64,000 nt of DNA from Chlamydiia bacterium (GTDB lineage: Bacteria > Chlamydiota > Chlamydiia > Chlamydiales > Rhabdochlamydiaceae). The DNA is taken from NCBI GenBank assembly GCA_963804085.1, contig CAWDOQ010000019.1, positions 315,403 through 379,402 on the forward strand, given 5' to 3'. Shown one piece after another: positions 30,566-31,572 of this stretch (the first letter of the stretch is position 1; each line of letters begins with the position of its first letter). Made by a program: the position numbers and the translations under genes. The notes beneath the pieces were generated by a model. It ran no database searches and was not told where the DNA came from. It was given only the letters and a program-made list of their open reading frames with translations.

Positions 30566-30762
30566 GAGAAAGCAACGGACGGGGCCCCCACGGACACACG
30601 GACTAGAGCGGACTTGCACGGACGAACTACGGACAAAAACGGACAAGGGCCCCAAAGAATAGCTAGCTCTTTGTCCGTTGGCCCCCGTCCCTTTACGTCT
30701 ATTGTTCGTCCGTGTTTTGTCCGTAAAAGTCCGAGCGTCCGTTGGGGCCTCTTCCAAATTGG
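30566..30762. repeat. Family B element, left direct-repeat copy
   Basis: About 195 bp, ACGGAC units then GTCCGT units. Roughly 90% identical by eye to 31378-31572. Confidence 0.95.
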
Positions 30763-30850
30763 AGGTAGAGAGACGTGTTAAATTTTTCTATGGGATAAAT
30801 AAAAAAGTTTTTGTAGATTTGCTTCGTTTTGCCTTAACGAGAGATGCAAA

Positions 30851-31417
30851 ATGGATAGCTTGATTCCAAAACATGGAGGCTTTCGCAAACTGAAAACTTT
30901 TCAGCTTGCGCGGCTTGTCTATGACATTACTATGCGGTTCTGTGACCGGTATATCAAAGGCCGTACTCACGATCAGATGGTTCAGGCCGCTCGCTCGGGG
31001 GTCCAGAACATTGCCGAGGGCAGCCAAGCTTCGGGAACTTCGAAAAAGACAGAGCTCAAGCTGACTAATGTGGCGCGCGCAAGCCTTGAAGAGTTGCGGC
31101 TGGACTATGAAGATTTTCTGAGGCAGCGACGGGCTTTGCCGATGGGATGATTTTGATCCGCGACGAAAACAAATCGCCACGCAGCGTATCGATAGCGCAG
31201 ATCAATTTGCTTTATGGGCAAAGAAGACCGCACGTAAAGAAGAGGAGATTGCAGAAACTGCCGCCAACGGGATGCTCGCGCTTCTCTCTATGACTTGCCG
31301 TTTTCTCGACCGACAACTAGCTGCGCAAGGAGAGGCATTCAGAAAGAAGGCGGCTTTACTGAGCGGCTTTATCGTATGAGAAAACAACGGACGGGCCCCC
31401 ACGGACGCACGGACTAG
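30851..31417 (+). pseudogene. Four-helix-bundle protein with suffix domain (TIGR04258-like), two frameshifts
   Basis: HGGFRKLKTFQ, THDQMVQAARSGVQNIAEGS, LTNVARASLEEL..DYEDFLRQR. Continues as WDDFDPRR...AANGMLALL...LDRQL after a shift near 31130, and as KEGGFTERLYRMR after a shift near 31340. Stop TAG 31415-31417 lies inside the repeat. Confidence 0.85.
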
Positions 31418-31572
31418 AGAACGGACTTGCACGGACGAACAACGGACTAAAACGGACGGGCCCCAAAGAATAGCTAGCTCTTTATCCGTCGGCTCCCGTC
31501 CGTTTACGTCCATTGTTCGTCCGTGTTTTGTCCGTGCAAGTCCGTGCGTCCGTTGGGGCCTCTTCCAAATTG
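31378..31572. repeat. Family B element, right direct-repeat copy
   Basis: Shares GGGCCCCAAAGAATAGCTAGCTCTTT centre and GGGGCCTCTTCCAAATTGG end with 30566-30762. Confidence 0.95.

Follow-up and report, generated by a model that had tools for sequence, protein, structure and literature searches.

Analysing a 64-kb stretch of a Chlamydiae-like genome (the window, i.e., the whole stretch of DNA under analysis), we found that one of its loci is a decayed copy of an old and widespread two-part module, which consists of a small protein and a hairpin in cis. This is concluded with high confidence, as are the identity of the protein, a member of the TIGR04258 "suffix" subfamily of the S23p / Avd four-helix-bundle superfamily, and that of its cis partner, a set of inverted short-unit arrays whose arms pair into a long hairpin; two direct repeats at the locus, L and R, are copies of this hairpin. 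The results point to a partnership of protein and hairpin rather than to an integron-like cassette. For the whole explanation, i.e., a decayed module, a hairpin that serves as protein partner or RNase III stem, and an integrase-free duplication as the origin of the layout, we estimate a probability of about 0.55. Structures of the S23p / 23S-rRNA-IVS protein family have been solved since 2006, and to our knowledge no function of this family is known outside diversity-generating retroelements (DGRs). In the literature searched, we found no description of the association between this gene family and the hairpin, and no paper for the family name.

Hairpin repeats and the broken gene

Pairwise alignment identified two direct repeats of about 200 bp each, L (about 30566-30767) and R (about 31378-31578), which are about 92% identical and differ, by hand count on the alignment, by about 13 substitutions and three indels. 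Direct-repeat families at a spacing of 811-813 bp measure 119 nt (92% identity), 40 nt (93%), 27 nt (96%) and 30 nt (83%). Each repeat has the architecture of a long hairpin, (ACGGAC)n - AGCTAGCT - (GTCCGT)n. In the left repeat L, the GGAC array spans positions 30592-30644, AGCTAGCT positions 30661-30668 and the GTCC array positions 30708-30740; in the right repeat R, the same elements occupy 31389-31457, 31472-31479 and 31498-31551, respectively. The predicted fold of L has an energy of -101.1 kcal/mol (z -7.4) and that of R an energy of -118.3 kcal/mol (z -11.0), and in both cases none of 200 shuffles was equally stable. The original prediction of two copies about 90% identical, each running from an (ACGGAC)n array through a palindrome to (GTCCGT)n, is thus confirmed. 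The left arm of L is also able to pair with the right arm of R (35 nt, 80%); the gene lies between two complete hairpins. The palindrome of L reaches from about 30560 to 30757, and R is the better-preserved palindrome of the pair. By eye on the L/R alignment, there are about nine stem-breaking states in L and about three in R, with no compensatory pairs; the polarity of these differences is uncertain, because at one such position the closest intact relative, P0001, has the state of L. The right end of R is 1 nt short of the stop codon (31579-31581) of a minus-strand membrane-protein gene; on its other side, the locus is bordered by a DUF5674 gene. Terminator-like features were called at this end.

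The feature between the repeats is a four-helix-bundle "suffix" pseudogene of the S23p / 23S-rRNA-IVS-protein superfamily (30851-31417, plus strand), with matches to TIGR02436, PF05635 and TIGR04258. Two frameshifts interrupt the reading frame, with one base too many near 31130 and one too few near 31340. The fragment 30851-31147 scored 39.3 bits for TIGR02436 (cut-off 24) and 36.2 bits for PF05635 (cut-off 33.8), whereas the TIGR04258 match is split by the second frameshift into parts of 31.0 bits (positions 1-30) and 20.9 bits (positions 32-46), each below the cut-off of 40. Intact relatives exceed this cut-off, with 59.9 bits for P0001, 70.3 bits for P0002 and 71.4 bits for P0009; P0001 scored 37.3 bits for TIGR02436 (cut-off 24), and the N-terminal 99 amino acids of the pseudogene are 92% identical to it. 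The gene had been expected to end inside the right repeat copy, and it does: the stop codon TAG (31415-31417) is located 40 nt inside R, which overlaps the last 13 codons. The reading frame of P0001 runs into a hairpin arm like that at the window gene, and the left arm of L encodes RKQRTGP / GPHGHTD, the tail of P0001; the gene-to-hairpin junction is included in the repeated unit.

A PDB sequence search with P0001 returned no relative. The AlphaFold model of P0001 (pLDDT 86.6) has as its top PDB matches 2GSC and 2RLD, which are pentameric S23p structures (probability 0.91-1.00, TM 0.46-0.67 over the target, E 0.02-0.17). For P0001, rather than for the window pseudogene itself, the model gives an up-down bundle of four helices, as in the solved S23p proteins; the "suffix" of the TIGR04258 subfamily is simply helix 4. 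A kinase-fused four-helix domain at 28299-28749 was considered as a suffix-type candidate and rejected; it is a distant classical member of PF05635 with no arrays nearby. No convincing promoter was found between L and the gene. A promoter-like 9-of-12 match is located upstream of L, at 30466-30494. Because the window copy is dead, nothing at this locus need function now.

Two gene-less hairpins were found elsewhere in the window. Solo 1 (24040-24210) is a diverged hairpin of ATGGAC/ACGGAC units with a fold of -67.9 kcal/mol (z -3.4), and its neighbours, both on the minus strand, are a YgjP-like gene (stop codon 24242-24244) and a ValRS gene (start 24012). Solo 2 (43796-43936), which the original prediction overlooked, is built on TGGAC, not ACGGAC (TGGAC x5, GTCCA x5-6), has a fold of -80.6 kcal/mol (z -9.1) and is located directly downstream of an RNA-methyltransferase gene (43959-44639, minus strand). 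When the spacers were shuffled, z was -6.0 for L and -7.5 for R, compared to -2.3 for solo 1 and -4.1 for solo 2. Altogether the 64 kb contain four hairpin copies of 140-210 bp, each palindromic and all intergenic. The hexamers ACGGAC and GTCCGT occur 18 and 21 times in the window, compared to about 14 expected, and form clusters only at L, R and solo 1. The solos have the architecture in common with L and R but not the spacers, and therefore they are not recent excision products of an L/R-type copy. A solo element at 24052-24207 had been given as an example of what excision would leave; the hairpin is real, although weaker than L and R and diverged from them, and an origin as a recent excision product is not upheld.

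Gene family and arrays across phyla

The comparison covered 78 related loci, among the matches listed, that have gene landmarks and represent more than 20 phyla. At least one GGAC or GTCC array (at least three units) is present at 65 of these 78 loci, again among the matches listed. There are 126 arrays in the 112.8 kb adjoining the gene, compared to 11 in 447 kb of distal flank, an enrichment of about 45-fold; several of the 11 distal arrays are accounted for by a second gene copy, by extra hairpins, or by arrays within a neighbouring hsdM gene. The arrays are oriented: GGAC predominates upstream (18 versus 5) and GTCC downstream (16 versus 1), and inside the gene GGAC (44) is followed by GTCC (42). 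In the unit, position -2 is R (A.46, G.47) and position -1 is T (.86), followed by GGAC, and the 9-nt period is found outside the ORF too, in 71 of 90 upstream spacings and 51 of 56 downstream spacings. The form of the unit is RTGGAC-N3 in most phyla and ACGGAC/ATGGAC-N4-5 in the genome of the window. Unit counts range from 3 to 14 under a strict definition, with 4 the commonest; five is not singled out, and a rule of one unit per protomer of a pentamer was rejected.

Arrays are placed upstream of the gene, downstream of it, or in frame within it. At most loci, the gene contains an in-frame hairpin, and this internal hairpin is at one fixed gene position in nearly all relatives. At locus L020, for example, a 108-nt hairpin is repeated 3.8 times in tandem upstream of the gene, with a homologous one inside the ORF and two downstream. 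In L016, the ORF is enclosed by 44-nt arms that are 95% complementary and 569 nt apart, and both L016 and L021 have the ORF in the loop. The flanking arrays of L021 have the motif in common and pair over 19 nt only, which shows that a long stem is not required for a motif array to persist. Shuffling of the right-arm spacers lowered the stability of 28 of 28 hairpins (median z -2.5), and for 20 of the 28 at most five of 100 shuffles were equally stable, which indicates that the arms pair beyond the motif.

Across more than 20 phyla, the 53 residues of the protein core show 94.6% identity (3081 pairs), whereas four-fold sites are 40% identical, and GC3 tracks the GC content of the host (r 0.74). 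Such conservation of the core, while synonymous sites are near saturation, indicates that the module is old and strongly constrained. In the long form P0009, the linker encoded by the hairpin is predicted to be disordered (residues 135-160, pLDDT <50) inside a confident bundle, which suggests selection on the nucleic acid, not on the peptide. CGGAC is more frequent than TGGAC at 16 of 19 type-B loci, and TGGAC more frequent than CGGAC at 38 of 40 type-A loci and all 7 short-type loci; the window gene, which is of the short type yet has CGGAC hairpins, is an exception to this association of subtype and motif. Since gene and hairpin are physically linked, the association may be the result of co-inheritance from one old split rather than of recognition.

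A sense-strand RNA signature in wobble pairs is unsupported, as the bias leans toward the antisense strand: 26 compact hairpins contain 54 G-U pairs in sense folds and 100 in antisense folds, with more G-U in the antisense fold for 17 hairpins, in the sense fold for 6, and 3 ties (sign test by hand, p about 0.035). This bias may reflect coding constraints, or a role at the DNA level or of the antisense strand. At the gathering score, Rfam detected no RNA family in the window besides two tRNAs. A relaxed scan of 30400-31700 returned a plant miRNA-precursor model only (29.5 and 24.2 bits, compared to a cut-off of 96), which was rejected.

Alternative explanations

The hairpins might instead belong to a DNA transposon, with the arrays as subterminal binding sites at its ends, a gene-bearing parent, four MITE-like hairpins in the window, and either the four-helix-bundle protein or an enzyme in trans as the mover. 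We consider this improbable, but several observations are in its favour: the inverted arrays face inward with fixed polarity, as transposon ends do; there are four intergenic copies in 64 kb, of which R and both solos are about 1-30 nt from a gene stop codon; and the window copies have end sequences in common (partly by eye). Arrays are also found in frame within neighbouring hsdM genes (L025, L072), like Rickettsia palindromic elements in other genes, and phyla are largely intermixed in the gene tree (33 changes compared to a minimum of 19; shuffles average 38.5). The 8-mer ATTGGAGG at 30758-65 occurs again at 30558-65, i.e., on both flanks of L. It should be noted that a target duplication at L is unproven, because the left 8-mer is also within the palindrome and R has no matching flank; by eye, ATTGGGGG is located to the right of R, the left flank of R is different, and no duplication is seen at either solo. 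Several results oppose the transposon. No transposase, integrase or reverse transcriptase was detected among the 137 ORFs flanking the 78 related loci or the 62 window ORFs scanned, and we know of no catalytic role of a four-helix bundle in transposition. The fixed position of the internal hairpin in nearly all relatives fits inheritance better than repeated insertion. Recent mobility is opposed by synonymous saturation, by GC3 amelioration and by near absence from plasmids and phages (one distant plasmid match, of 37.5% identity, among 72,556 records, and none among phage records).

Much less probable is the integron-like mechanism of the original prediction, in which a resident hairpin received a circle of the gene and one hairpin by site-specific integration, with a solo as the product of excision. 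The topology of hairpin, gene and hairpin in direct orientation is as expected for such an event, the gene-hairpin junction is conserved with P0001, and gene-less solo hairpins exist. The likeness to integron cassettes extends to a folded imperfect palindrome after a promoter-less ORF and to ORFs between palindromes in direct orientation, and folded imperfect palindromes of the size of L and R have the general form of attC sites. However, attC core sites have the consensus RYYYAAC ... GTTRRRY, and the hairpin ends ...AAGCAAC and GTTGGGG each miss it at one position (by eye). There was no integron integrase or tyrosine recombinase among the 62 window ORFs scanned; their sole recombinase is a large serine recombinase (59910-61643) beside a tRNA, 28 kb away. 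No attI site and no cassette array were found at the locus, and the palindrome, unlike that of integrons, belongs with a single gene family. The solos have diverged from L and R, and the relatives have layouts that a cassette does not predict, i.e., enclosing arms, hairpins inside the ORF and 3.8 tandem hairpins. What stands of the cassette interpretation is that gene and hairpin belong together, as the repeated junction and the tail in common with P0001 indicate; the integron-like mechanism is unsupported, given the absence of an integrase among the ORFs scanned and the attC misfit.

It is more doubtful still that these are ordinary intergenic palindromes or terminators between two of which the gene merely landed. 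The four copies are indeed all intergenic, with R and each solo just past a stop codon, and the right end of R has terminator-like features, but a coincidence is contradicted by the enrichment of arrays beside the gene (65 of 78 loci of unrelated phyla, about 45-fold) and by the P0001 frame, which enters an equivalent hairpin arm. An assembly artefact is negligible as an explanation: repeats of about 200 bp can mislead short-read assemblers, but L and R are not identical (about 13 substitutions and three indels), which argues against a simple assembly duplication, they adjoin different unique sequence, and L020, from an unrelated assembly, has a like layout.

Proposed mechanism and comparison with known systems

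Under the preferred reading, a protein-and-hairpin module, the hairpin would be a binding partner, at the nucleic-acid level, of the oligomeric protein, by analogy with the Avd pentamer, in which equivalent residues of successive protomers contact an RNA stem-loop. Alternatively or additionally, it may form a long double-stranded RNA stem that is cut by RNase III, as in the S23p-carrying 23S rRNA intervening sequences (IVS) and Correia elements. Stems beside or around the gene would release its message from a host transcript, and such stems could govern translation or stability of this message. We infer that the direct-repeat layout arose by local duplication or by homologous recombination between hairpin copies, without a dedicated integrase, and that afterwards, in the window, the gene died and L has been eroding. 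Recombination between L and R could remove the gene, so that a single hairpin stays behind.

In the Coxiella IVS (PMC4990558), a 28-bp terminal stem encloses an S23p ORF, tandem heptamers are located upstream of the ORF, and RNase III excises the element. This source leaves the origin of rRNA intervening sequences open and gives an old proposal that the ORF serves the element. The system described here resembles the IVS of Coxiella and Leptospira in an ORF of the same superfamily that is accompanied by long inverted repeats, which enclose it as a terminal stem in L016, in short tandem repeats upstream of the ORF (heptamers in Coxiella), and in an ORF that is often decaying (PMC4990558); L016 and L021 share the ORF-in-the-loop layout. 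The differences are that the window locus is outside an rRNA gene (Rfam finds two tRNAs only, and the neighbours are protein-coding), that the protein, a TIGR04258 member, has a long insert preceding helix 4, that the stems consist of a periodic RTGGAC unit, and that hairpins also occur within the ORF or flank it on either side as complete palindromes.

In DGRs, according to bioRxiv 10.1101/2023.10.23.563531, all five protomers of the Avd pentamer bind an 11-bp stem-loop, and 207 of 278 DGRs have such a stem-loop. A homopentameric ring is known for 2GSC (PMC4990558) and for Avd (same bioRxiv source). By analogy, the module would be like the Avd system in having a pentameric protein of the same superfamily and a cognate hairpin encoded beside the gene (bioRxiv 10.1101/2023.10.23.563531; PMC10053308). 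In contrast to DGRs, neither the vicinity of the gene in the window nor the set of 137 flanking ORFs of relatives includes a reverse transcriptase, a template or a variable repeat, and the hairpins are periodic, with about 60-75 predicted pairs compared to the 11 bp of the Avd stem-loop.

RNase III cleaves Correia elements at the inverted repeats, and Rickettsia palindromic elements occur within genes without breaking the frame, their encoded peptide being tolerated (review PMC10969869). Our hairpins are like MITEs and Correia elements in being small multi-copy intergenic palindromes, and the internal hairpins of relatives are like Rickettsia palindromic elements in encoding an in-frame, tolerated peptide (PMC10969869). 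However, the 137 flanking ORFs and the scanned window ORFs include no transposase that would mark a parent insertion sequence, and across phyla the elements are associated with a single gene family, which is not one of transposases. In addition, the internal hairpin occupies a single fixed gene position, and the arms are arrays of one short unit with a frame-preserving 9-nt period.

A wider reading, which we put forward tentatively and with some reserve, is that TIGR04258 proteins and RTGGAC-array hairpins constitute an undescribed, ancient, self-contained protein-hairpin element of more than 20 phyla. Such an element would be a free-living counterpart of the S23p-bearing rRNA IVS and a relative of the Avd-stem-loop pair. 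The hairpin would be selected as nucleic acid even inside the ORF, where the 9-nt unit would preserve the frame, and the near-invariant protein would read the repeats with one protomer after another. The hairpin would have escaped in some lineages, among them this Chlamydiae-like genome, as gene-less copies behind unrelated genes, and it would also invade adjoining type I restriction-modification genes. If true, this would be an unusually clear nucleic-acid structure conserved in coding sequence, with a peptide that is merely a disordered loop.

A near-invariant TIGR04258 core that comes with a simple and easily recognised nucleic-acid partner brings this "function unknown" family within reach of direct experiment. 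For annotation, periodic linker peptides (G-x-x ... S-T-x) and odd C-terminal tails become readable as translated hairpin arms. Provision of the start codon by the repeat unit was rejected as a rule, because GGAC is within 30 nt upstream of the LIPKH codon in only 14 of 69 loci. In L016, the ATG is supplied by the last upstream unit, ATGGAC, and the window gene begins with ATGGAT.

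The gene and its hairpin repeats

We conclude, with high confidence, that the locus is a gene-plus-hairpin module in a decayed state, in which the left (L) and right (R) repeats are copies of a palindrome that is also present in the window as gene-less copies. Pairwise alignment placed L at ~30566-30767 and R at ~31378-31578; reading of 30300-31900 and a repeat search showed that they are direct copies ~811 bp apart, with matching pieces of 119 nt (92% identity), 40 nt (93%), 27 nt (96%) and 30 nt (83%). Because ~13 substitutions and 3 indels separate L from R (manual count in the pairwise alignment), an assembly error producing an exact copy is an unlikely source of the duplication. 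Both repeats have the architecture (ACGGAC)n - AGCTAGCT - (GTCCGT)n, and in neither case was any of 200 shuffled sequences as stable as the fold of the repeat itself (L, -101.1 kcal/mol, z -7.4; R, -118.3 kcal/mol, z -11.0). The original prediction of two direct repeats with ~90% identity, each a hairpin of this build, is thus borne out. The 8-mer ATTGGAGG flanks L on either side (30558-30565 and 30758-30765), and ATTGGGGG is found on the right of R at 31569-31576; the 8-mer may be a target duplication, the right end of the element, or a piece of the palindrome.

The four-helix-bundle gene between the repeats (30851-31417, plus strand) is a pseudogene with two frameshifts and a stop codon within R. 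Its first part (30851-31147) scores above the cut-off for both TIGR02436 (39.3 bits against 24) and PF05635 (36.2 bits against 33.8), and two pieces further along, in different frames, match positions 1-30 and 32-46 of the TIGR04258 profile. Compared by tblastn to P0001, its closest intact protein relative, the gene has gained one base near 31130 and lost one near 31340. The TAG stop codon (31415-31417) lies 40 nt into R, so that the gene does end inside the right copy, as had been proposed, and the left arm of R supplies the final 13 codons and the stop. The left arm of L codes for the tail RKQRTGP / GPHGHTD, identical in P0001, which argues that the gene-hairpin junction belongs to the repeated unit. 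The gene is antisense to both flanking genes, which encode a DUF5674 protein (30129-30476, minus strand) and a membrane protein (31579-31965, minus strand).

Within the window, clusters of ACGGAC/GTCCGT are confined to L, R and 24.0-24.2 kb. The solo element expected at the latter site is a real hairpin (solo 1, 24040-24210), although a weaker and diverged one (fold z -3.4). Reliance on ACGGAC had missed a fourth hairpin, built of TGGAC, which was detected by the scan for GGAC/GTCC arrays (solo 2, 43796-43936; -80.6 kcal/mol, z -9.1) and adjoins the 3' side of an RNA-methyltransferase gene, just after its stop. The solos have architecture and end sequences in common with L and R, and different spacers; R and both solos each follow a minus-strand gene, 1 to ~30 nt past its stop codon.

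Relatives and their conservation

At least 8000 proteins match the 99-aa N-terminal fragment of the window gene (E <= 0.001); the 120 matches listed are 80-92% identical to it and, where a source is named, come from Deltaproteobacteria or Planctomycetia. Comparison of P0001 to 1.84 billion cluster representatives yielded 3268 matches at E <= 1e-3, of which 1763 reach E <= 1e-10 and 249 reach E <= 1e-30. A genome scan found at least 602 matching stretches, 560 of them coding for a relative, with Chlamydiae MAGs among them; the window itself resembles a Chlamydiae-type chromosome (a 1895-aa double UvrA, V-type ATPase, housekeeping genes). The best 80 of the at least 560 relative-coding stretches (loci L001-L080, more than 20 phyla) were analyzed further; none of these comes from the genome of the window.

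For 79 sequences, i.e., the window and 78 loci (L015 and L050 were left out because a landmark is absent), the identity of a 53-aa core over 3081 pairs is 94.6% at the protein level, 77.7% at the nucleotide level and just 40% at four-fold third positions. GC3 varies from 0.23 to 0.91 and tracks the GC of the flanks (r 0.74). Together, these values speak for a long-resident gene under very strong purifying selection and against recent transfer. The protein tree covers those loci whose ORF is complete by pattern (60 of 80, 53 of them with a phylum label) and has 33 phylum changes, compared to a possible minimum of 19 and to a mean of 38.5 (minimum 35) in 200 label shuffles, suggesting that the host signal is weak, with the reservation that a protein this conserved gives poor resolution. 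Plasmids almost never carry the gene (one distant match in 72,556 records), and no family gene was found in phage records.

Arrays, hairpins and neighboring genes

Defining an array as at least three GGAC or GTCC units spaced 8-12 nt apart, we found at least one beside the gene in 65 of 78 loci. The 112.8 kb near the gene contain 126 arrays and the 447 kb of distal flank 11, a ~45-fold enrichment; of the distal arrays, a second gene copy in L021 and a further hairpin in L020 account for one each, and three are within or just past the neighboring hsdM of L025 and L072. The polarity relative to the gene is fixed: 18 GGAC and 5 GTCC arrays are upstream, 1 GGAC and 16 GTCC downstream, and inside the gene GGAC (44) comes first and GTCC (42) second. 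The unit consensus is R (A.46, G.47), T (.86), then GGAC, and the 9-nt spacing prevails outside the ORF too (71/90 upstream, 230/270 internal, 51/56 downstream). In many of the 20 proteins examined among the 120 matches listed, helix 3 is joined to the suffix by a linker of the form G-x-x-G-x-x ... S-T-x-S-T-x or H-T-D ... R-T-R-T ... S-V-x-V, and the DNA behind it is (GGAC)n ... (GTCC)n.

Spacers were shuffled in the right arm only, with the GTCC cores kept, in 28 hairpins: the four window elements and 24 of 26 compact hairpins (L037 1-187 and the longer overlapping L052 entry were left out). All 28 were destabilized (median z -2.5; L -6.0, R -7.5), and in 20 of them at most 5 of 100 shuffles were as stable; the arms are therefore true complements rather than just two motif arrays.

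The arrangement varies among loci. In L016 (Chlamydiae MAG), 44-nt arms with 95% complementarity, separated by 569 nt, surround the entire ORF, and in L021 (Parachlamydiaceae MAG) arrays are present with pairing over just 19 nt. In L020 (Proteobacteria MAG), a 108-nt hairpin is repeated in tandem upstream (3.8 copies), a homologue of it is in the ORF and two more hairpins are downstream, i.e., the window layout plus an extra internal hairpin. L021 has gene copies at 1-413 (interrupted by the contig end) and 2766-3344, 2.5 kb apart, each followed by its own GTCC array. Runaway in-ORF expansions, translated to (GRD)n, (GHG)n or (KST)n, occur in L056 (~4290-4474), L019 (~1855-1930) and L032, which suggests slippage of 9-nt or shorter units.

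Among the flanking ORFs scanned (137 of 140; the three longest were left out), there was no transposase, integrase or reverse transcriptase. Type I restriction-modification genes are near the gene in 16 of 78 loci: 11 by Pfam, and five further loci with an HsdR C-terminal motif in common, abutting the gene (confirmed as HsdR in L024, and in L025 and L072 via downstream HsdM and HsdM-HsdS genes). An HsdR gene with this motif immediately precedes the gene in at least seven loci. In L025 (5948-5987) and L072 (6012-6033), the methylase gene that comes right after the four-helix-bundle gene (HsdM or an HsdM-HsdS fusion) contains in-frame GTCC arrays of the 9-nt unit. Further neighbors are island-typical (Bro-N, RhuM, PIN, Zeta toxin, nucleotidyltransferase) or housekeeping (RecA, FtsZ, AlaRS).

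The main rival explanation is a DNA transposon with MITE-like derivatives. The inward array polarity, the dispersed solos and the arrays within hsdM would all follow from it; however, no enzyme for it was found among the scanned ORFs, and the fixed internal hairpin position and the age of the copies fit it poorly. The integron-like cassette favored in the original prediction fits the topology and nothing beyond it, and no tyrosine recombinase was found in the window; judged by eye, the ends of the hairpins depart from the attC consensus.

Possible mode of action of the module

In the P0001 model (pLDDT 86.6), the suffix is a helix (130-166), and the model matches best, within the PDB, two pentameric S23p proteins, 2GSC and 2RLD. 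In the model of P0009, a long form with a hairpin-encoded linker, residues 135-160 have pLDDT <50 and no secondary structure within a confident bundle; the hairpin-encoded peptide is thus predicted to be unstructured. Motif and protein subtypes were compared in 74 loci with all landmarks (8 unclassed): CGGAC outnumbers TGGAC in 16 of 19 type-B loci (with 1 tie and 2 reversals), and TGGAC is the more frequent in 38 of 40 type-A loci and in all 7 of the short type. The motif variant thus tracks the protein subtype, which is consistent with recognition but no proof of it, because gene and hairpin are physically linked. Wobble pairs do not favor sense-strand RNA: the 26 compact hairpins have 54 G-U pairs in the sense and 100 in the antisense orientation, with more antisense in 17, more sense in 6 and 3 ties (sign test by hand, p ~0.035).

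The working mode of the gene-plus-hairpin module can be inferred from relatives. All five protomers of the Avd pentamer grip, with the same residues each, an 11-bp RNA stem-loop beside the Avd gene, and such a stem-loop is present in 207 of 278 DGRs with Avd homologues (bioRxiv 10.1101/2023.10.23.563531; for Avd of DGRs, see also PMC10053308). The rRNA intervening sequences hold an S23p ORF within a terminal stem cut by RNase III, with tandem heptamers upstream (PMC4990558), and RNase III cuts Correia elements at their inverted repeats (PMC10969869). Based on these precedents, we propose that the protein, as an oligomer, binds the periodic hairpin, or that the stems undergo processing, or that both happen; the gene's message would then be freed and controlled inside any host transcript. 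A 9-nt unit would allow in-ORF arrays to lengthen or shorten with the frame kept. The simplest origin for the direct-repeat layout would be that hairpin copies were duplicated locally or underwent homologous exchange, as suggested by the tandem copies in L020, and the same exchange could remove the gene, with one hairpin remaining. The gene-hairpin association is apparently undescribed: neither a description of it nor a publication for the name 'Four helix bundle suffix' was found in the literature searched, whose coverage excludes most subscription journals.

Other features of the window

A 1109-aa ORF (25420-28749, minus strand) combines a classical PF05635 domain (aa 53-150, E 1.4e-20; ~28299-28600), with only distant likeness to the suffix type, and a Ser/Thr protein kinase domain (aa 193-464); its GTG start overlaps the start of the TrpRS gene and may therefore have been set too far upstream. 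Seven consecutive same-strand ORFs of 126-170 aa (47-3328, minus strand) lack any Pfam match and could form one family of paralogs. The UvrA ORF (32022-37709, minus strand; 1895 aa) consists of two complete UvrA units. A large serine recombinase gene (Resolvase, Recombinase and zinc ribbon; 59910-61643, minus strand) directly adjoins, with a slight overlap, a tRNA gene (59837-59921, plus strand), and this pair at 59.8-61.6 kb resembles the edge of an integrated element.
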